From: Escherichia phage PC2
DNA: 45,201 nt
Strand: one strand, 5' to 3'
Sequence record: NC_073088
Shown here one piece after another: positions 1-45,201 of this stretch. How positions within the stretch are numbered: position 1 is the first letter of the stretch; each line of letters opens with the position of its first letter. The notes below the pieces were generated by a model. The model ran no database searches. It saw only the letters and a program-made list of their open reading frames with translations, and was not told the origin of the DNA. Made by a program: the position numbers and the translations under genes.

Positions 1-2292
1 ATGAAAGACTTCGAACGCCTTTTTCTCGATACCGAGACATTTAGCGGGGTGGACCTGAAGAAAGTGGGCGCATACGCCTACGCAGAGCACCCAACAACCG
101 AGATTATGATTTGCACCTACGCCATCGACGAGGGCCGCGTGCAGACATGGGATTGCACCGAATCCCCCACAATGCCGCGTGAACTGCGCAAGGCGCTCCG
201 CCGGGTGTCCCGCAAGAAAGCAAAAATCGTGATGGCTAACGGCCTCCTGTTTGACCGCCTGGTTATTCGCGAGAAGTGGGGCATTGACCTGCCAGTGTGC
301 CAGATCGAAGATACCATGATTATGGCCTTTCGACACGCGTTGCCGGGTAGTCTCGATATGCAGTGCCAGGTGCTGGGCGTTGACGCAGACCACGCGAAGG
401 ATAAGGCGGGCAAGGCGCTGATCAAACGATTCTGTAAGCCAACCCCTAAGACCTACAAAATCCGCCGCTACACGCGCGAGACGCACCCCGAGGAGTGGGC
501 TAAATTCCTGCGCTATGCCGCGTTGGATATCATCGCTATGAGGGAAGTCTATTGGCGCATACCGGACTGGGGCAACACGCCGAAGGAAGATGAAATCCTG
601 CTTATTGACCAGATGATTAACGACCGCGGCTTCTATGTGGACGTTGACCTGGCTAACGCCGCGATCAAAGCGGTGCAGGCGCATAAGGAAGAATTGAAGG
701 AAGAAGCGTGGGAGCGCTTCGGCGGTAAGCTGACCGGCAATGACTTTCTGCCAGCGCTGCGCGACCTCGCGCCTGCGTTCACGATCCACAACGCGCAGAA
801 ATCCACACTTAACGACCTGCTGGAAGACCCAGACTTCCCCGACGAGGGAAAAGCGCTTATAGAAATGCGCCTCGGGGCATCATCAACGGCATCGACTAAG
901 TACAATCCGCTCGTAAACGGGCTGTCTTCCGATGGTCGCCGTCGTGGGTGTCTCCAGTATGGCGGGGCAAAACGCACGCTACGCTGGGCGGGCAAAGGCT
1001 TCCAACCGCAAAACCTGGCGCGCGGCGAGTATAGCGACGACCACGAAGGGAAGATTAAGCGCCGTGATGGCGAAAGCGACGTCTCGTTTTGGGTGCGGTC
1101 GCACATGCTTACCAACGGCATCAACTCCCTGTTACGCGGGACCGCACACTGGGCGTATGACATATCGAAGTTAACGGCCTCGACCGTTCGCGGGTGCATT
1201 ATTCCGGCTAAGGGCAAGAAGTTTGTCGTAGCGGACTATTCCAACGTGGAAGGCCGCGGGCTTGCATGGATCGCTGGCGAGAAAACCGCGCTAATGGTGT
1301 TTAATGCCGATCGAGATATCTATTGTGAAACTGCCGGTAAGATGTTTGGCCTCGACCCGGAATACATCAAAGCCAACCGCAAAGACTTACGCCAGATCGG
1401 TAAGGCGTGTGAATTGGGACTGGGTTATGGCGGCGGCGTGGCGGCGTTCTTGCAGTTCGCTAAAAACATGGGTCTAGACCTGTATGCGATGGCGGACGTC
1501 ATGAAGGGTACATTCCCCGATCATATTTGGGCCGCGGCGAAACGTGGTTATGAGTATGCCCGCATTAACGAAGCTAAGCGCCCGCCGAAGCCTGGCAAGA
1601 AAGACGAGCGCCCAACTTACATACTGCCGAAAAACGTATGGCTGACGTGTGATGCGATCAAACGTATGTGGCGCGAGTCGCACCCGAAGACGGTAGCATT
1701 TTGGGCTGAACTGGAAGACGCGGTGCTCTGCGCGATCCGCAATCCGGGCAAAGCGTACTGGGCTGGCGCGAACGTTCGCCCGGATGGCAAGAAAGCGCTC
1801 AAGATAGTCCGCACGAAGGCGAAGCACGACCCAACCTTCGACGAGGAGCGCGACGACCCGAACGCCGCGGGGTGGTGGTTGAAAATTGAGTTACCGTCGG
1901 GGCGCATCATGAGCTACCCCGGCATCGCGCTGTCTGTCACGACCGAGATCGACGAAGACACCGGCAAGAAGCGCACCAGCACCCGCATTAAATATCAGGG
2001 TGAGAATCAGACGACGCGCCAGTGGGGATTCCAGTACACCTACGGCGGCAAACTGACGGAAAACATCGTGCAGGCTCTGTGCCGCGATATCCTCGCATGG
2101 TCCATGCCGGGCGTTGAAGCCGCAGGGTATGAGATCGTACTGTCCGTACACGATGAACTGATAACCGAAGTGCCGGATACCGACGACTACACAACCGAGG
2201 AGTTGTGCGCGCTGATGTGCGACCTGCCGGTTTGGGCGAAAGGCTTCCCGCTTGCAGCGGAAGGCGACATTATGTACAGGTACAGGAAATAA
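1..2292 (+). CDS. Family A (Pol I / T7-like) DNA polymerase with N-terminal 3'-5' exonuclease domain
   Basis: 763-aa ORF; N-terminal exo motif LFLDTETFSG; polymerase-domain motifs resembling T7 gp5 (QIGKACELGLGYGGG, SVHDELITEV). ATG at position 1. Confidence 0.9.
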   Translation: MKDFERLFLDTETFSGVDLKKVGAYAYAEHPTTEIMICTYAIDEGRVQTWDCTESPTMPRELRKALRRVSRKKAKIVMANGLLFDRLVIREKWGIDLPVCQIEDTMIMAFRHALPGSLDMQCQVLGVDADHAKDKAGKALIKRFCKPTPKTYKIRRYTRETHPEEWAKFLRYAALDIIAMREVYWRIPDWGNTPKEDEILLIDQMINDRGFYVDVDLANAAIKAVQAHKEELKEEAWERFGGKLTGNDFLPALRDLAPAFTIHNAQKSTLNDLLEDPDFPDEGKALIEMRLGASSTASTKYNPLVNGLSSDGRRRGCLQYGGAKRTLRWAGKGFQPQNLARGEYSDDHEGKIKRRDGESDVSFWVRSHMLTNGINSLLRGTAHWAYDISKLTASTVRGCIIPAKGKKFVVADYSNVEGRGLAWIAGEKTALMVFNADRDIYCETAGKMFGLDPEYIKANRKDLRQIGKACELGLGYGGGVAAFLQFAKNMGLDLYAMADVMKGTFPDHIWAAAKRGYEYARINEAKRPPKPGKKDERPTYILPKNVWLTCDAIKRMWRESHPKTVAFWAELEDAVLCAIRNPGKAYWAGANVRPDGKKALKIVRTKAKHDPTFDEERDDPNAAGWWLKIELPSGRIMSYPGIALSVTTEIDEDTGKKRTSTRIKYQGENQTTRQWGFQYTYGGKLTENIVQALCRDILAWSMPGVEAAGYEIVLSVHDELITEVPDTDDYTTEELCALMCDLPVWAKGFPLAAEGDIMYRYRK

Positions 2293-38428: not shown

Positions 38429-40693
38429 TTAATCTTTCAGGTCATCATCGGTCGCCGAAAGCGTTATGGGAATATCCGATTTGATGACCAAATTCGACGA
38501 CCCATAGATGGCCCCGGTGTGCGGATCTGTATAAAAACCAATCACGCCGCGCTCGACCATATCGTCGATTGCCTTCGTCGAAGTGCCTCCCTTAGCGAGT
38601 CCAGCCTGGCGGACAATTGCCGATTTACTGAATCCAGTGTGGTTAGGGTTATCTTCCATCAGTTTTTCCAGTGCCGCATAGAGCACTTTCTCTTTTTCGT
38701 TGCGCGGACCGGCGGTGTTCTCCTCCTTAGCTGCGGCTTTTCCCTCCGCCTTCGCCTGTTCTATAGCGAACGGTGCCAGGGCAACCGGTACGAGGTAGAG
38801 AGTCTCGTCGCGAGGTGTGGAGGCAATCGGCTTGACGTCCCAACCGGCAACCACATCCCCGAAGTCTGGCCCGGTGCTGGTGGACTGGTGCGACGCGAAC
38901 GCTTCTGACTTGCGGAGATCCACCTTCACCTTGCACTTGAGCAGGACGAAGCCACGCGGCGCTTGCTTGATACCGTTACGTGACTTTTCGTGGTACAGGT
39001 TGAGTTGTCCCGGCTGGTTGTCGTCCGGCTGTTCCAGGAAGAACGCAGAATCGACAGCACCATGCAGCGCGCCGGACCCGCGGGGGGTTCTGCTGCCGTT
39101 TGCACCTTTCGCGGGGTGGTGGATGACACCCGCACTGCCACCTGTATTTTCCGCAATGGCCTTCAGCGCTTTGACCACTTCACCCATATCGCTGGCGTTG
39201 TTCTCGTCGAACGGTTTAGCATCAGCGGACCGCAACGCAACAGTCTGGTTGAGTGAGTCGAACGCCACCAGGCCAACCGGTTCGCCGTTAGCGGTGCGGT
39301 TGATAAAGCTGATAACTTCGCGCAAGCCGGATTTGCTGGTGATATCCCAGCCGCGTGACTGCAGATCGATAATGTGCAGCTTGTCCAGGTCGTGCTCGTA
39401 TTTAATCTGCAATGCTTCTTTACGCTGGTTGGAGGCTTCACCACCTTCCGCATCGAAATAGAAGCAATGGGACTGGACGACCTTCGCACCGCCAAACGGA
39501 ATACCGGCGGCAACCGCGCCCATCTGGCCCAGCACGTAGAAAGACTTACCAATATTCGACTCACCCGCCATGTACCAGGTCGATTTGAAGTTAATCAGAC
39601 CTTCGATGATCGGGTCGTGCTTACTGAATAGTGCGACCGGCTCGTTATCCAGATCCGCATCGGTGCACACGCCGTATTCTTCGCCGTCGCCAACCGCATC
39701 AACAATATGTTCATATAAGGATTCGACTTCCTCGTCGTCCAGCCCTGGGAGGATGGCGGCAATTTGCTTACGTGACATGTTGTGCGGCTCGACGTTCAGG
39801 TGGTCCGGTATCCCGATAAGACGTAGCGCCAGGTGCTGGTGTCTATTTAGCTCCGAGCAACACTCGTTTCCGGTGTGCATACACTTGAAACGGATCTCGC
39901 CATCCTTGACCATGATAGCCGTCGACCCTTCGCCGCTGTGCAGATGTTCGTTCGGGCACGGCACTTCATAACCGCGACCAGAAGATAACTCCTCGAATCC
40001 TGCCTGGAAGCACCAGTCCAGAATACCGTCCGCCACTGCGTCGTCGCCCTGGGTAAGCTCGCGGCGTACTTCCTCTTTCTCCACCCCCAGCTTGTCCGCC
40101 AGGCGGAGCAGACGCCGCACATTAGCGCGCTTGCCGTAGTGGCACTTAATAACAGACTGCTGGTGTGGCAAGTACATAAGACGGTTTGTGTCTTTCGTGC
40201 AATCGTCGAAGTCCACATCCGACAGGCCCAGTTGGTCTAACAGCGCGTACTGCACGCGGCCCAGGTCTTCCGCCGGTACTGGTTTATCTGTGAGCACAAG
40301 GAAACGGGCGCAACGCGTGCCGCCTTTCAGCGGGTGGCGGTCGCCGGTGGTTGTGTGGAATACGTGCTCAAGCCCCGCGCCGATGAAAGCCTTGCGGCAG
40401 CGGCGTAGGGTGCGGGTGTCGGTACGGTCAATATCGAAGAACAGGATCGAGCGGTCCACCGCACTTGTCTTGCGGCGTAAGCCGTCACTGGTATACGCTA
40501 CGATGCCATCGGCCTTACGCTTGCGGCGCGCATACTCGGCTTTATCTTCCGTCTTGTTGATATGCACCGAGGAGATTTCTTTCGCATCATTGATAAATTC
40601 GAAAAATTCATCGGTGGTCATCTGGAAGTTTTCCGCCCTGGCTTTTTCGCCTTTTTTAGCGGGTCTTGTTACAGCGAATTTAATTAAGCTCAT
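38429..40693 (-). CDS. Primase-polymerase (AEP-like) fused to a P-loop helicase
   Basis: 754 aa; N-terminal DxD motif (ILFFDIDRTD), central Cys-rich zinc-binding segment (CPNEHLH...CMHTGNECC), C-terminal Walker A (MAGESNIGKSF). Confidence 0.8.
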   Translation of the reverse strand: MSLIKFAVTRPAKKGEKARAENFQMTTDEFFEFINDAKEISSVHINKTEDKAEYARRKRKADGIVAYTSDGLRRKTSAVDRSILFFDIDRTDTRTLRRCRKAFIGAGLEHVFHTTTGDRHPLKGGTRCARFLVLTDKPVPAEDLGRVQYALLDQLGLSDVDFDDCTKDTNRLMYLPHQQSVIKCHYGKRANVRRLLRLADKLGVEKEEVRRELTQGDDAVADGILDWCFQAGFEELSSGRGYEVPCPNEHLHSGEGSTAIMVKDGEIRFKCMHTGNECCSELNRHQHLALRLIGIPDHLNVEPHNMSRKQIAAILPGLDDEEVESLYEHIVDAVGDGEEYGVCTDADLDNEPVALFSKHDPIIEGLINFKSTWYMAGESNIGKSFYVLGQMGAVAAGIPFGGAKVVQSHCFYFDAEGGEASNQRKEALQIKYEHDLDKLHIIDLQSRGWDITSKSGLREVISFINRTANGEPVGLVAFDSLNQTVALRSADAKPFDENNASDMGEVVKALKAIAENTGGSAGVIHHPAKGANGSRTPRGSGALHGAVDSAFFLEQPDDNQPGQLNLYHEKSRNGIKQAPRGFVLLKCKVKVDLRKSEAFASHQSTSTGPDFGDVVAGWDVKPIASTPRDETLYLVPVALAPFAIEQAKAEGKAAAKEENTAGPRNEKEKVLYAALEKLMEDNPNHTGFSKSAIVRQAGLAKGGTSTKAIDDMVERGVIGFYTDPHTGAIYGSSNLVIKSDIPITLSATDDDLKD

Positions 40694-41436: not shown

Positions 41437-41949
41437 ATGTTTGAACAAATCGTAAACCTGATTACTCGCGGCGTAGTAGCACTGGAAACCATCGCTAAGC
41501 ATTATGAAACCGTCGGCGCTGCCGTTGGTAAACAGGAAGACAAGAAGCCGTCTAAGGCTAAAAAAGAAGTTGTCGAAGATGACGACGCCGAAGACGAAGC
41601 ACCGGCGAAAACCAAAAAAGCACCGGCGAAAGGTAAGGCCAAAAAAGAAGTCGTAGAGGATGACGACGATGAAGAAGCCGAAGACGAAAAACCGGCGAAG
41701 GGTAAAAAAGCACCGGCGAAAGGCAAAGGTAAGAAAGATGCCGACCCGCTGGCAGAGATGCGCGACGAGATCAAACAGTATGCCGCGATTATCGCTGGCG
41801 GTGATGATGACGATGCGAACGACGAATTTGACGACCTGCTGGAATCGTTCGAGATCAAATCAATCGCCAAGCTGGAAGATGACGACGTGGAAGATTTCCA
41901 CAAAGATCTGAAAGAAATCGTCGAAACCTATTTCGAACTGGAAGATTAA
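41437..41949 (+). CDS. Acidic protein with alternating Lys-rich and Asp/Glu-rich repeats
   Basis: 170 aa; repeats KKEVVEDDD(A/D)E...APAKGK; first gene after a strong promoter; followed by a terminator. Confidence 0.55.
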   Translation: MFEQIVNLITRGVVALETIAKHYETVGAAVGKQEDKKPSKAKKEVVEDDDAEDEAPAKTKKAPAKGKAKKEVVEDDDDEEAEDEKPAKGKKAPAKGKGKKDADPLAEMRDEIKQYAAIIAGGDDDDANDEFDDLLESFEIKSIAKLEDDDVEDFHKDLKEIVETYFELED

Positions 41950-42249: not shown

Positions 42250-42438
42250 ATGGCTATATTCTTCGTTTTATTTCGTTGCCGTATTACCGGCGACGAGCAA
42301 CCGGAAATTGTTATGAATCAAAACTGGAATTGCTGCTGGATGCAAGCCCGAGGACTGGCGGCTACCATGAACAATGCCGCTAAGCGGGCCAATGTTGAAC
42401 ATGATTATTACATTGCTCAGTTTTCAAGGGTGGAATAA
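42250..42438 (+). CDS. Hypothetical small protein
   Basis: 62-aa ORF starting right after the upstream stop; TAATG overlap with the nuclease gene. Confidence 0.3.
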   Translation: MAIFFVLFRCRITGDEQPEIVMNQNWNCCWMQARGLAATMNNAAKRANVEHDYYIAQFSRVE

Positions 42439-43868
42439 TGGCGATTAAACCAAAACGTAAAACGCAATCCGGTAGCAATACGGAACACTCATTACTCGGA
42501 CCGTCCGGTGCTAAAAAATGGATGGGTTGCCCTGCCGCCCTGGTGGTGGAAAAAGATATCCCGAACGAATCCGGGCAAGCCGCGATTAACGGTACGAGTA
42601 TGCACACCGTATCTGAGGTGGTGCTAAACCGCATTATCGCCGGTGAGAAGCTGATAACCGCGAAGACGTATAAAGGGTGCTACGTCGAGAACGAAGGCAA
42701 GGGGCCAGTAAAGGCACACCCTAAAGCACCGAAAGGCGGCGTACTGGTCAACGACGACATGGTGAAACAGTGCGACGCGTACATCGACCACTGGCGACCG
42801 CTCCTCGAAGTGGCGGAGTTTGTCCAGCTTGAGATGCGCGCCGATCTGACCCGCGTCCTTCACTCAGGCTACGAGATCGACGGCAACAGGATTAAAACGT
42901 TCGGTACTGCCGATATGGTCATGGTCATGAAGAAGACTGACGGCACGTACATGCTTATTGTTGGCGACCTGAAGACCGGGCGGCATAAGGTCGAGGCGAA
43001 AGAAAACAAACAGCTTATGTTGTACGCGATCGGACTGCTGCGCAAGCTGCACACTATGTACGACATTACGACCGTTCGCCTGGTTATCTTCCAGCCGTAT
43101 TGCGGCGGGGCGTCGGAGTGGGATATTTCGGTAGAAGCGCTGGAGATATTCGCGAAGTTTGCATCCAAGCGCGCTATTGCCGCACTGGAGGCGTATTCCC
43201 GCGGCAAGAAGGGACTCACCCGCGCGGACTTCCGGCCCAGCGTCGATGCGTGCCAGTGGTGCCGATTTGCGGATCAGTGTAGTGCCCGCGCTAAGGCCGC
43301 AATCGACACGATGACCCCACCGACGGCAACCGACGAAGACCTGGGCGACGACGTGAGTATTGCGACAGAGGAAGAATGCGCCAACCATGCCCGCAATATG
43401 GCCCGCGAAGCGCGGAAGGCGGCACGACGAGCGAAGCGTGGTAAGAAAGAAGCAGCCCCCGGTGCTATGAGCGCTGCGGAACTGCGCAAGGCTTATGAAG
43501 GCCTGGACGCAATGCGCCAGCACATCAAGGCTATCGAGTCCGCGGTATTCAAGGCGGTCATGGCTGGCGATGGCGAATCGCTGGGCCTCAAGATGGTTGC
43601 CGGTAAGGAAGGGGTCCGTAAGTGGGCGGACGAGAGCGAAGTGATTGAAATATTCACGAAGGCCCGGATCAAGCGCGATGTGATGTACAAAGAAACATTG
43701 CTCAGTCCTACGGACGCCGAGAAGGTGCTGAAGGACGAGAAGCCGAAAGTGTGGGCTAAATTATGTGATAAAATCACGCGCGCACCGGCTAAACCGGTAT
43801 TAGCACCCATCGACGACCCGCGCCCTGCGTGGTCGGAGGCCACTGACGAGGACTTAAGCAATGAATAA
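42438..43868 (+). CDS. Cas4-like PD-(D/E)xK nuclease (DUF2800-like) with Fe-S cysteine cluster
   Basis: 476 aa; N-terminal Cys (WMGCPA), core GDLKTGRHKVEAKENKQLMLYA (QxxxY), C-terminal CQWCRFADQC. Confidence 0.7.
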   Translation: MAIKPKRKTQSGSNTEHSLLGPSGAKKWMGCPAALVVEKDIPNESGQAAINGTSMHTVSEVVLNRIIAGEKLITAKTYKGCYVENEGKGPVKAHPKAPKGGVLVNDDMVKQCDAYIDHWRPLLEVAEFVQLEMRADLTRVLHSGYEIDGNRIKTFGTADMVMVMKKTDGTYMLIVGDLKTGRHKVEAKENKQLMLYAIGLLRKLHTMYDITTVRLVIFQPYCGGASEWDISVEALEIFAKFASKRAIAALEAYSRGKKGLTRADFRPSVDACQWCRFADQCSARAKAAIDTMTPPTATDEDLGDDVSIATEEECANHARNMAREARKAARRAKRGKKEAAPGAMSAAELRKAYEGLDAMRQHIKAIESAVFKAVMAGDGESLGLKMVAGKEGVRKWADESEVIEIFTKARIKRDVMYKETLLSPTDAEKVLKDEKPKVWAKLCDKITRAPAKPVLAPIDDPRPAWSEATDEDLSNE

Positions 43869-44103
43869 AGTATTTGCGATCTTATTGATGTTTTTGCTCG
43901 GCGCGCTGGGCTTTATCCTGCATTGCGTGCAAGGCGTGTTAATGGTGGCTTGGATGATTCGCCATCCGACCCGCTGGCTGGACGACGGATATAGTGACGC
44001 TGCCGTCGACTGGGTGGTGAAGAACAACAACCGACCGCCGTTAAGCTGGATCGAGAACGCTACCAACTACGTGACCAGAAATCTTTTTAATGAAAATGCT
44101 TGA
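43861..44103 (+). CDS. Small membrane protein
   Basis: 80 aa; hydrophobic N-terminus VFAILLMFLLGALGFIL; overlaps the nuclease stop by 8 nt. Confidence 0.45.
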   Translation: MNKVFAILLMFLLGALGFILHCVQGVLMVAWMIRHPTRWLDDGYSDAAVDWVVKNNNRPPLSWIENATNYVTRNLFNENA

Positions 44104-44193
44104 CCGCTTAGGCGCAACCAAGTAGATCGGCAACCAAGCCGAACGGGGTGGCTCACAATAACCCCGATACATGTGAAAATGAGGAATTGGAAA

Positions 44194-44976
44194 ATGGCTA
44201 AAGTCAACCTGAAAAATGTGCGCGTATGTTTCCTGAAAATTTGGGAACGTGATACCCCTAAACAGGATGGACAAAAACCGGCATACCGTGCAGTGATTCT
44301 TCTTGATAAAGAAGATCCGCAGGTGGACAAAGTGGAAGCGGCAGCGCGCGCAGTGCTAACCGACAAGCTGAAATCCGAGAAGAACGCCGATAAGTGGATG
44401 GACCGCCACTACGCCCAGGATTCTAAGGAATGCGCTGTTCGTGACGGTGACGAGCGCGATGAAGTGACTGAAGAATTCGAAGGCATGTTGTACATCAACG
44501 CTAAATCGTTCAAACAGCCGAACATCCAAACGTCACTCGGCGAGAAGCAGACCGAACAGGGTCTGACCATCGACGGCGACGAGATTGAAGGCCAGGAGAT
44601 CTACTCCGGTTGTTATTGCAACGTGTCCCTGGATATTTGGGCGTGGAACAACACCAACGGCAAGGGACTCGGTGCTGGACTGCTGGGTTTACGCTTCCGT
44701 GATGACGGTGAAGCCTTCGGCGGTGGCGGATCTTCTTGCTCCGATGAAGACCTGGACAACGACGAAGACGAAGCACCGCGCAAGGCTAAGAAGTCAAAAC
44801 GTCGTGATGACGATGATGAAGATGATAAGCCGCGTAAGTCCAAAAAGTCCAAGCGCCGCGATGACTACGACGATGAGGAAGATGAAAAACCTCGCAAACG
44901 TCGCAAGTCCCGCGATGACGAAGATGAGGACGAAGACGACGAAGACGAAGCACCACGTAAACGTCGCCGCCGTTAA
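44194..44976 (+). CDS. Single-stranded DNA-binding protein-like (gp2.5 / DUF2815-like) with charged repeat tail
   Basis: 260 aa from ATG 44194 (RBS GAGGA); N-terminus MAKVNLKNVRV; C-terminal about 80 aa of alternating D/E-rich and PRKSKKSKRR repeats ending RKRRRR. Confidence 0.55.
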   Translation: MAKVNLKNVRVCFLKIWERDTPKQDGQKPAYRAVILLDKEDPQVDKVEAAARAVLTDKLKSEKNADKWMDRHYAQDSKECAVRDGDERDEVTEEFEGMLYINAKSFKQPNIQTSLGEKQTEQGLTIDGDEIEGQEIYSGCYCNVSLDIWAWNNTNGKGLGAGLLGLRFRDDGEAFGGGGSSCSDEDLDNDEDEAPRKAKKSKRRDDDDEDDKPRKSKKSKRRDDYDDEEDEKPRKRRKSRDDEDEDEDDEDEAPRKRRRR

Positions 44977-44994
44977 GGGCAAAGCCCACTATTC

Positions 44995-45019
44995 AAGCCC
45001 GCTTAGTGCGGGCTTTTTA
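44995..45019 (+). terminator. Intrinsic terminator after the SSB-like gene
   Basis: AAGCCCGC-TTAGT-GCGGGCTT followed by TTTAAT. Confidence 0.75.
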
Positions 45020-45034
45020 ATAGGACAATGAAAA

Positions 45035-45201
45035 ATGCGCATTAAAGCCAGCGAAGTAAAAGTCGGAATGCAGGTATGGTCTAAATTGCTGGGCGAGTAT
45101 TTCACCGTTGCCGAGATTCGCAACAGCGGCGAGGAGATAACCCTTTCCGACGGTATCTTCTCCATGATCGGCAGCGCTGACGCCGTAGTGAGGATTAAGC
45201 A
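45035..45201 (+). CDS. Hypothetical protein, 3'-truncated by the window edge
   Basis: RBS AGGA 8 nt upstream of ATG; frame stays open to the last base (MRIKASEVKVGMQVWSKLLGEYF...). Confidence 0.35.
   Translation, partial: MRIKASEVKVGMQVWSKLLGEYFTVAEIRNSGEEITLSDGIFSMIGSADAVVRIK

Follow-up and report, generated by a model that had tools for sequence, protein, structure and literature searches.

Interleaved acidic and basic repeats and an arginine-rich terminus in the C-terminal tail of the Dhillonvirus single-strand DNA-binding protein

According to textbooks and structural papers, every bacterial and phage single-strand DNA-binding protein (SSB) recruits its partners through an acidic C-terminal tail. 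The window analysed here, the whole 45,201-nucleotide stretch of Escherichia phage PC2 (NC_073088), is a complete, circularly permuted Dhillonvirus genome beginning at the ATG of the DNA polymerase, and it encodes an SSB whose tail alternates acidic and basic blocks and ends in RKRRRR. The locus thus raises the question of whether this tail is genuine, how far it departs from the rest of its family, and what it might do. The gene and its immediate surroundings are laid out as follows.

44194 to 44976, plus strand: SSB gene, 260 aa and stop, assigned by PF10991, PHROG and PDB sequence matches.
44194 to 44718, plus strand: predicted OB-fold ssDNA-binding domain, residues 1-175 (Pfam, AF2, Foldseek).
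44719 to 44739, plus strand: Gly/Ser hinge GGGGSSC, residues 176-182, recognised from the sequence and from the pLDDT, which falls here.
44995 to 45018, plus strand: intrinsic terminator 3' of the SSB gene, a hairpin AAGCCCGC-UUAGU-GCGGGCUU followed by a U run.

The ATG at 44194, with a GAGGA ribosome-binding site 8 nt before it, is the likely start, the alternative being a longer ORF from an upstream GTG at 44173 (44173 to 44976, plus strand). The terminator hairpin was found by direct folding (-24.8 kcal/mol, z -5.3) and a terminator is annotated in related phage records; a consensus promoter and terminator scan gave matches at chance level only and overlooked it. The SSB gene is contained in more than 150 GenBank relatives, and orthologues in related phages are annotated as Gp2.5-like SSB or DUF2815. 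In all, DUF2815 SSBs are found in 857 phage records.

The earlier note's premise of an OB-fold SSB of the gp2.5/Enc34 type at the N-terminus is borne out by Pfam, PHROG, PDB sequence search, AF2 and Foldseek, all of which concur. The protein matched PF10991 (DUF2815) over residues 3-191 with 109.7 bits, where the curated cutoff is 26 (E 1.6e-31), and phrog_112 at 6.4e-51. The AF2 model has a pLDDT above 90 over residues 1-170, and Foldseek with this model returned 4klk (2e-13), Enc34 ORF6 (5odl, 7e-13) and T7 gp2.5 (1je5, 1e-6), the last sharing a related OB fold at a sequence identity of ~11-12%. W149 and N153 align with the DNA-stacking residues Trp150 and Asn154 of Enc34, while Enc34 Tyr156 aligns with the non-aromatic N155, W151 being close by. 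The protein is the replication and recombination SSB of a Dhillonvirus, consisting of an Enc34/T7 gp2.5-type OB fold and a disordered C-terminal tail. In SECphi4/SECphi18 the orthologous protein has been defined genetically as the SSB that triggers Retron-Eco8. The escape mutations covered here are T56P or promoter mutations, with none in the tail, so that the genetics, to this extent, does not point at the tail.

The tail comprises residues 183-260 (78 aa, with 35 D/E and 28 K/R, a net charge of -7 and 81% of residues charged). Position 44740, which the earlier note gave as its start, is the S of SDEDL, residue 183. The tail is built as follows.

44740 to 44754, plus strand: proximal acidic motif S-D-E-D-L, residues 183-187, genus-invariant, a candidate docking motif.
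44755 to 44805, plus strand: repeat unit 1, DNDEDE and APRKAKKSKRR, residues 188-204.
44806 to 44859, plus strand: repeat unit 2, DDDDEDD and KPRKSKKSKRR, residues 205-222; missing from HK578.
44860 to 44913, plus strand: repeat unit 3, DDYDDEEDE and KPRKRRKSR, residues 223-240; missing from LM40P1.
44914 to 44973, plus strand: repeat unit 4, DDEDEDEDDEDE and the terminal APRKRRRR before the stop, residues 241-260, with the basic terminus at 44950-44973.

Where about four repeats had been proposed, exactly four units were counted, each an acidic block followed by an x-P-R-K-basic block. The proposed end in five Arg held in that five of the last six residues (RKRRRR) are Arg, but only four of them are consecutive. 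In the AF2 model a one-turn helix is formed by residues 184-187, and residues 190-260 are disordered, with pLDDT values of 49-58 and no secondary structure. The charges are segregated far beyond chance: the tail switches charge sign only 7 times, against 31.1 +/- 3.8 in 5000 composition-preserving shuffles, none of which was as low (0/5000), and its blob-charge asymmetry exceeds that of every shuffle (kappa ~0.59).

Repeats of this kind could be produced by collapse or expansion of an assembly, or by a frameshift or an error of annotation, and frameshifted tails do occur in two database proteins, P0005 (phage vB_EcoS-22664B1) and P0009, which look like errors or rare mutants. For the tail studied here, however, such an origin is so improbable that we give it almost no weight. 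The repeats are short (~54 nt) and diverged, the units sharing only 61-78% DNA identity, so that reads span them; the identical in-frame four-unit layout is present in more than 100 independent genomes; and the frame stays intact to the stop codon, followed by the strong terminator. The four-unit tail was also found in a 90%-identity cluster with 537 member sequences, and the array, with its diverged units and its recurrence in many independent genomes, is genuine. A tandem repeat at the DNA level, subject to collapse in assembly, had been considered as a candidate and was ruled out by TRF, which detected short 9-nt periodicities only, together with the unit identities given above. An alternative reading frame or a programmed frameshift was likewise considered, as the +1 frame is open across the tail (ORF 44585-45031), but this openness is a consequence of the GAN-codon composition.

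The family at large was sampled with the OB domain only, because a first search with the whole protein was biased toward proteins sharing the tail, and 150 representatives were examined. Basic blocks were present in about 13-16 of the 150. The remaining representatives have short acidic tails, mostly with a hydrophobic last residue, and since ~90% of the sample is acid-only, the tail is indeed atypical for its family, as had been claimed. In a rough NJ tree of OB domains the 70-member clade around the query, Guernseyvirinae included, is uniformly mixed-tailed, and mixed-charge tails also recur in separate clades; this pattern suggests several independent origins, although so rough a tree does not prove them. 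The net charge of the OB core averaged -3.3 with mixed tails vs +2.1 otherwise (p = 7e-24), a comparison uncorrected for phylogeny, in which close kin of the query are over-represented among the mixed tails.

Among close relatives, the Guernseyvirinae (Jerseyvirus, Kagunavirus, Cornellvirus) and other Dhillonvirus isolates, SECphi4/SECphi18 among them, carry direct homologues of the same architecture, which differ from the query in unit number and small substitutions only. The Guernseyvirinae SSB has a single unit and ends in DDLEDDEDEAPRRERRR(N)R before the stop; those of Jerseyvirus and Kagunavirus end in DDLEDDEDEAPRRERRRNR before the stop, and that of Cornellvirus ends in RRKRRSYEDDEE, not in Arg. 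Viable Dhillonvirus isolates have one, three or four units: one in phage welsh, three in HK578, SECphi4 and LM40P1, and four in most. Between zero and nine basic blocks were found in wider relatives. Because copy number varies in this way among homologues, the internal repeats behave like a dispensable low-complexity spacer. The idea that the tail is a routine low-complexity linker stands to this extent, but fails for the tail as a whole, which has a pN/pS of 0.13 and is invariant at both ends: SDEDL after the OB fold does not vary in the genus, and the terminal PRKRRRR was unchanged in 10/10 Dhillonvirus orthologues read.

The same variation would be expected if slippage or recombination in GA-rich codons had simply expanded a tolerated charged spacer that does nothing specific. 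Direct repeats, for example the 18-nt CGACGAAGACGAAGCACC common to units 1 and 4, are the sites between which the deletions lie, and a 170-aa protein encoded at 41437 to 41949, discussed below, is equally variable in length. We nevertheless regard neutral expansion as rather improbable. Across 10 orthologues the pN/pS of the tail compares with 0.07 for the OB domain, and indels take out whole units, in register; the units are kept at the protein level through synonymous changes, 8 of 11 codons differing between the basic block of unit 1 and that of unit 2, 6 of them synonymously. Relatives with as little as ~30% OB identity still share the x-Pro at the junction from acidic to basic block, almost always present, and the Arg-rich last unit, and the mixed tail is kept throughout the 70-member clade and recurs in separate ones. 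Part of the low pN/pS could reflect constraint on composition and not a specific interaction. Judged by sequence comparison, the tail is real, under purifying selection and common to many related phages.

The proximal acidic motif led to other replication proteins. A search of the six-frame translation of the whole window with the pattern [ST]D[DE]DL gave four matches, 4/4 in replication proteins. The exonuclease and the helicase-primase that carry it, and the polymerase as a putative target, are the following.

42438 to 43868, plus strand: DUF2800 / PD-(D/E)XK exonuclease (Pfam, PHROG), with TDEDL twice: at 43842-43856, where it stops 3 aa short of the C-terminus, and internally at 43329-43343.
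38429 to 40693, minus strand: replicative helicase-primase (AAA_25; Pfam, PHROG), with TDDDL at 38438-38452, 2 aa from the C-terminus.
1 to 2292, plus strand: DNA polymerase (family A), to which the shared acidic motif might bind.

The motif recurs in Guernseyvirinae helicases and exonucleases, and the exonuclease C-terminus matches the SSB of its own phage better than those of other phages (0/20000 permutations). As to the earlier suggestion that the tail may change partner binding, exonuclease and helicase-primase end in the same motif, which suggests that the canonical acidic docking element has not been lost but is kept as SDEDL near the OB fold. T7 offers a parallel, in which one acidic tail motif is carried by both gp2.5 and gp4, [ST]D[DE]DL being the analogue here, found in the exonuclease as well. 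The T7 polymerase has basic patches on which the acidic tails of gp4 dock (PMC12593628), and the gp2.5 tail competes with ssDNA (PMC10359462). In contrast to gp2.5, which ends in an acidic run and a C-terminal Phe, the query has its acidic motif internally, with basic blocks and the Arg terminus coming after it.

This arrangement could alternatively mean that docking has reversed its polarity, the terminal PRKRRRR, perhaps with the internal basic blocks, replacing the acidic-hydrophobic tip and binding an acidic patch or tail of a partner such as the polymerase, the helicase-primase, the exonuclease, the 170-aa protein or the host SSB tip. The terminal unit is genus-invariant, and in 88 of 111 homologues the last basic block has the longest run of K/R and is the richest in Arg. 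Moreover, the 70-member clade around the query is without an acidic-hydrophobic tip, and the C-termini of helicase-primase, exonuclease and 170-aa protein are all acidic. In phages PS6 and YeP6, however, the SSB tail is purely acidic and the exonuclease has the same acidic tail, and the target must therefore be basic and cannot be a basic block of the SSB. Mixed-charge repeats in distant DUF2815 relatives lead up to an end in DDEIPF, DDDLPF or DDDVA; where these relatives keep PRRRR(S)R, it is followed by the classical DDDVA or DDEIPF, so that the Arg block is not the terminus. A basic docking tip thus seems unlikely to us, if still worth entertaining.

The 170-aa protein had been described as carrying a similar mixed-charge repeat, and this proved correct, two KKEVVEDDD..EDE(A/K)PAK.KKAPAKGK.KK repeats being found.

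41437 to 41949, plus strand: 170-aa protein, phrog_3127 (PHROG).

The repeats, at residues 42-100 (nt 41560-41736), lie between an N-terminal helix and a three-helix bundle at the C-terminus, and the protein varies in length as does the SSB tail. A Pfam search gave no match, and Foldseek against the PDB found generic helical bundles at best (E = 0.38), with the Red-beta CTD and Sak at E 4-6.

The PAKGKAKK-type repeats of this neighbouring protein are among the observations that could be taken to mean that the Lys/Arg blocks of the SSB bind the backbone of DNA or RNA in the manner of an arginine-rich motif, strengthening the hold on ssDNA, on dsDNA junctions or on RNA primers, or aiding strand annealing, with the acidic blocks acting as competitors only. 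PRKSKKSKRR and PRKRRRR are typical nucleic-acid-binding compositions, and gp2.5-type proteins also anneal DNA, related records bearing the label 'ssDNA annealing protein'. On the other hand, with a net charge of -7 and a longer acidic block flanking every basic block, DNA binding by the tail should be suppressed, and one-unit variants are viable; we consider a dedicated nucleic-acid-binding arm quite doubtful.

The reading that we tentatively hold, at somewhat less than an even chance of its being right, is that the tail adds a polyampholyte module, by which autoinhibition and the electrostatics between SSBs or between SSB and DNA would be tuned. The work of the gp2.5/Enc34 tail, mimicking DNA and docking partners, would fall to the acidic blocks and the proximal acidic motif: they may occupy the basic ssDNA cleft or basic patches of the partners, leaving free SSB autoinhibited and ssDNA-specific. 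The basic blocks and the Arg terminus would form a counter-charge arm, by analogy functionally like the LAST arm of T4 gp32; this counter-charge arm would pair with acidic blocks or acidic core surfaces of a neighbouring SSB, or with the DNA backbone, and so tune how cooperatively SSB coats ssDNA, how it clusters there or how it turns over. How strong or far-reaching this effect is would depend on how many internal units there are; as viable phages can lose internal units, any role in cooperativity would be modulatory and non-essential.

Among the closest known systems is Enc34 ORF6 (5ODJ/5ODK/5ODL), from a phage labelled as an Enterobacter/Hafnia phage, which has the same family and fold (sequence E ~1e-8 to 1e-10), a disordered C-terminal tail and a location in the replication module. 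Deletion of its tail unmasks dsDNA binding, and in the crystal the tail inserts in the groove of a neighbour (PMC5686142). That tail, however, is short and purely acidic (16 D/E in the last 29 residues), whereas the query's has 78 aa, with 28 K/R in four blocks, and ends in RKRRRR. T4 gp32 resembles the query in combining a basic K/R/S-rich arm with an acidic arm, RKSKKSKRR being similar in composition to LAST (Lys-Arg-Lys-Ser-Thr). This basic LAST arm confers cooperativity (PMC12893549), and the acidic arm serves autoinhibition and partner binding. The likeness would be functional only: the core of gp32 is unrelated and contains Zn, its two arms are found at opposite ends of the protein and do not alternate as tandem repeats, whereas the query's basic blocks are C-terminal, and the Foldseek/PDB matches of the SSB included none to gp32, all being of the DUF2815/gp2.5 class. 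E. coli SSB likewise has a low-complexity disordered region of variable length after its OB fold, which tunes cooperativity and condensation, but its linker is Gly/Gln/Pro-rich and nearly uncharged, in a tetramer ending in DDDIPF, in contrast to the highly charged region and basic terminus seen here.

In the literature on DUF2815, the SECphi18 SSB and arginine-rich SSB tails, we found no description of the tail or experiment on it. Published structural work leaves the tail out of view.

As a bolder, distinctly speculative proposal that we think improbable, the poly-Arg polyampholyte tail may be a distinct, positively selected module with several independent origins within DUF2815, conferring multivalent acid-base self-association, while docking has shifted to the internal SDEDL shared with exonuclease and helicase-primase. 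If so, self-association would give rise to replication foci resembling condensates, or to filaments of high cooperativity, in cells infected by siphophages, and the SSB tail could act jointly with the 170-aa protein carrying like repeats.

The shared [ST]D[DE]DL motif offers a hypothesis for the coupling of SSB, exonuclease and helicase-primase in a widespread replication module. The SSB itself is known to trigger Retron-Eco8 and has been implicated in ShosTA escape, and the clade to which it belongs comprises hundreds of isolates, including the SECphi and BASEL phages of anti-phage defence research. With its interleaved basic blocks and Arg end, the Dhillonvirus and Guernseyvirinae clade is an exception to the acidic-tail rule; should cooperativity or the choice of partners be tuned by the basic blocks, it would allow the control of SSB function by tail electrostatics to be followed through a natural series of one to four units, with termini ranging from acidic to basic.

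The sequence is a complete, circularly permuted Escherichia Dhillonvirus genome of the HK578 / SSL-2009a / SECphi18 group, whose first base is that of the DNA polymerase ATG, and 80-95% identity to its SSB region was found in 159 phage records. The SSB gene, already labelled Gp2.5-like SSB or DUF2815 in GenBank, and its tail are placed as follows.

44173/44194-44976, + strand: SSB gene, ATG 44194 downstream of GAGGA, 260 aa
44740-44973, + strand: SSB tail, residues 183-260

The ATG at 44194 is the probable start, judging from the sequence, and folding places a strong terminator hairpin after the stop codon. The N-terminal domain belongs to the T7/Enc34 class of OB-fold SSBs, as established by matches to PF10991 (Enc34_ssDNA-bd, DUF2815; 109.7 bits, Pfam cutoff 26), to PHROG 112 ('Gp2.5-like ssDNA binding and annealing protein') and to the PDB sequences 4KLK, 4JG2 and Enc34 ORF6 (5ODJ), and by an AlphaFold2 model (alignment of 72 homologues; pLDDT >90 over residues 1-170) with 4KLK (2e-13), ssDNA-bound Enc34 ORF6 (7e-13) and T7 gp2.5 (1e-6) as Foldseek neighbours. 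The doubt raised in the earlier note, that this domain might not be an OB fold, is thereby removed. W149 and N153 align with Enc34 Trp150 and Asn154; the residue aligned with Tyr156 is N155.

The tail reads SDEDL-DNDEDE-APRKAKKSKRR-DDDDEDD-KPRKSKKSKRR-DDYDDEEDE-KPRKRRKSR-DDEDEDEDDEDE-APRKRRRR, so that the four units described before, each an acidic block followed by an x-P-R-K-basic block, can be read directly in residues 183-260. With 35 D/E and 28 K/R among its 78 residues it is 81% charged (net -7), and the charges are strongly segregated, the sign switching only 7 times as against 31.1 +/- 3.8 in shuffled tails (0/5000 shuffles as low; kappa ~0.59). AlphaFold2 gave the tail a pLDDT of 49-58, without secondary structure except for a one-turn helix on DEDL. 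As DNA, the units share only 61-78% identity with each other and TRF detected short 9-nt periodicities only, which rules out a recent DNA duplication and excludes an artefact, the collapse or expansion of repeats in assembly for which the earlier note had proposed a check. In two SSB homologues, P0005 (Escherichia phage vB_EcoS-22664B1) and P0009, a frameshift close to where the tail begins leads into the +1 frame (..MTKMKHRARLRSPNVV..) and beyond the usual stop; this reflects a sequencing error or else a natural mutation that removes the tail.

An initial homologue search with the whole protein and a word index was biased toward tail-sharing proteins, and the OB domain alone was therefore searched against 1.8 billion representatives. 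Basic blocks were present in the tails of only about 13-16 of the best 150 representatives, while the remainder carried purely acidic tails of 20-40 aa, mostly with a hydrophobic or aromatic last residue (DDDIPF, DDLPF, DDLL, EDF). The Enc34 tail is likewise purely acidic (16/29 residues D/E), and a long acidic tail has been said to characterise all prokaryotic and phage SSBs (Cernooka et al., PMC5686142). A literature search found no paper describing or testing this mixed-charge, Arg-ended tail. The earlier interpretation is partly supported: such a tail is atypical of the family, and the SSB that carries it has a genuine OB fold.

The unit grammar nevertheless recurs in 118 homologues, down to ~27% identity, with 0-9 basic blocks per tail (mode 3) and an acid-to-basic junction that is almost always x-Pro (AP 82, RP 62 and KP 40 occurrences). 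The longest K/R run was the last basic block in 88/111 proteins. Tails ended in basic residues in 42 homologues and in acidic ones in 61, and in 37 of the latter the last residue was hydrophobic, e.g. ..PRRRRSRDEDVA or ..RRPAEDDDDDLPF. Cultured relatives form a graded series.

SSB tails of cultured relatives and, within the genus, of Dhillonvirus isolates
Xfas53, PS6, YeP6: purely acidic
Jerseyvirus SE2, Kagunavirus RP180/Bas75: one unit, ending ..DDLEDDEDEAPRRERRRNR
Cornellvirus SP-031: two units, then ..SYEDDEE
Serratia phage Otaku: three units, end RRSRRRR
welsh (Dhillonvirus): one unit, SSB 202 aa
HK578, SECphi4, LM40P1 (Dhillonvirus): three units, SSB 239-241 aa
Most Dhillonvirus isolates: four units, SSB 256-262 aa

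Viable Dhillonvirus isolates thus differ in unit number, the deletions being in register with loss of whole units, while both tail ends (initial SD(E/D)DL..DEDE, terminal [A/K]PRKRRRR) are kept in all those compared. In a rough NJ tree built from 246 OB domains, the clade of 70 proteins that contains the query is entirely mixed-tailed (42 with a basic end, 27 with an acidic end but no hydrophobic tip), and a separate clade combines mixed tails with the classical acidic-hydrophobic tip. By parsimony, mixed tails would have been gained or lost several times, which is only suggestive because the tree is rough. The repeats are a clade-wide, copy-number-variable module and not peculiar to this genome.

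Neutral low-complexity expansion, as an explanation of the repeats, is disfavoured by the data on selection. Between the basic block of unit 1 (APRKAKKSKRR) and that of unit 2 (KPRKSKKSKRR), 8/11 codons differ, 6 of those 8 synonymously, and among 10 Dhillonvirus orthologues pN/pS was 0.131 in the tail (pS 0.44) and 0.069 in the OB domain. The tail peptide is under purifying selection, despite the loss of whole units.

The acidic start of the tail contains a motif, [ST]D[DE]DL, that matched exactly four times when the 45-kb window was translated in six frames, each time in a replication protein.

44740-44754, + strand: SSB, SCSDEDLDND, directly after the OB fold
43842-43856, + strand: DUF2800/PD-(D/E)XK exonuclease, SEATDEDLSNE, three residues from the C-terminus
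43329-43343, + strand: same exonuclease, TATDEDLGDD, internal
38438-38452, - strand: helicase-primase, LSATDDDLKD, two residues from the C-terminus

The pattern is seen again in the relatives examined (loci L001-L008 and L018-L022), with these C-termini.

Otaku exonuclease: AASDEDLA
SP-031 exonuclease: ATDSDLDD, identical to ATDSDLDD of its own SSB
SE2 exonuclease: VTEDDLEA
PS6 exonuclease: ADEFDDLD; its SSB has DEFDDLDD
YeP6 exonuclease: ..ESAESLI; its SSB ends ..DAESLI
Helicase-primases: TTEGDLE, ATYDDLE, SEEDDLEN

In 11 phages, the exonuclease C-terminus matched the post-OB segment of its own SSB with a mean best 8-mer score of 22.6, as against 15.2 for the SSBs of other phages, and 0/20000 permutations reached the cognate mean. 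In T7, gp4 and gp2.5 each have an acidic C-tail directed at the same basic patches of the polymerase (PMC12593628), and the tail of gp2.5 can in addition fill the DNA cleft of gp2.5 itself (PMC10359462; PMC5686142). The sharing of one acidic motif by SSB, exonuclease and helicase-primase resembles the T7 arrangement and suggests, by analogy, a candidate common docking site. The exonuclease and helicase tails lack a basic block and stop right after the motif. The canonical acidic docking element seems not to have been replaced in the SSB but retained at residues 183-193, upstream of the repeats, and the polyampholyte repeats and Arg terminus would be an SSB-specific addition downstream of it.

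A similar repeat had been pointed out in a second protein, and this likeness holds.

41437-41949, + strand: 170-aa protein, phrog_3127, first gene of the rightward replication operon

A conserved helix (residues 2-24) and a conserved acidic three-helix bundle (residues 106-166) flank a disordered segment of mixed charge in which the repeat KKEVVEDDD..EDExPAKxKKAPAKGKxKK occurs twice. Neither a Pfam match nor a significant fold match was found for it. Positional homologues in Guernseyvirinae are SE2 gp11, Otaku 00480 and SP-031 gp14, and phrog_3127 homologues range over 115-239 aa, mostly because repeat units have been gained or lost; among the longest, some are extended at the N-terminus by a start called further upstream. 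The replication module of the SSB thus includes another protein that uses a variable polyampholyte spacer.

The acidic elements of the tail could act in DNA mimicry, autoinhibition and partner docking, as in gp2.5 and in Enc34 ORF6, where tail deletion unmasks dsDNA binding (PMC5686142). The basic blocks interspersed among them, with the Arg terminus, would then form a counter-charge arm. Its partners would be the DNA backbone or, on adjacent SSB molecules, acidic blocks or acidic core surfaces, and such pairing would tune cooperativity, clustering or turnover. The closest parallels in function are T4 gp32, with its basic LAST arm (PMC12893549), and E. coli SSB, whose disordered linker governs both cooperativity and condensation. 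OB cores bearing mixed tails are more acidic (net charge -3.3 +/- 3.8, n=122) than those with acid-only tails (+2.1 +/- 2.8, n=123; p = 7e-24, a statistic that ignores phylogeny), which is compatible with core-tail electrostatics. Rival explanations would make the tail a docking tip of reversed polarity or an arm that binds nucleic acid directly. A single unit suffices in welsh and in the Guernseyvirinae, so the internal units cannot be essential and must have a modulatory role.

The SECphi4/6/18 orthologue is the genetically shown SSB trigger of Retron-Eco8, and escape from ShosTA also occurs through SSB mutations; the escape mutations covered here are T56P or promoter changes, none in the tail. 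Between SSB and DNA polymerase lies a small ORF (MRIKASEVKVGMQVWSKLLGEYF...VVRIKQ; 56 aa in SECphi18) at 45036-45201, continuing to position 1, whose stop overlaps the polymerase ATG across the circular-permutation junction; its SECphi18 frameshift E21fs is among the defence-escape mutants in the supplement of bioRxiv 10.1101/2022.08.27.505566. The polymerase ORF (1-2292) is uninterrupted, unlike that downstream of SSB in Sodalis phage SO-1 (L015), annotated with a type I self-splicing intron. An 80-aa ORF at 43861-44103, between exonuclease and SSB, has a hydrophobic N-terminal segment and is probably a small membrane protein inside the replication operon; the RefSeq label of its SECphi18 homologue, 'mature oligodendrocyte transmembrane protein', is implausible.

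While the function proposed for it is inferential, the SSB tail contradicts a commonly stated rule on SSB tails, occurs in model phages that are in wide use, and has natural variants that make up an allelic series.
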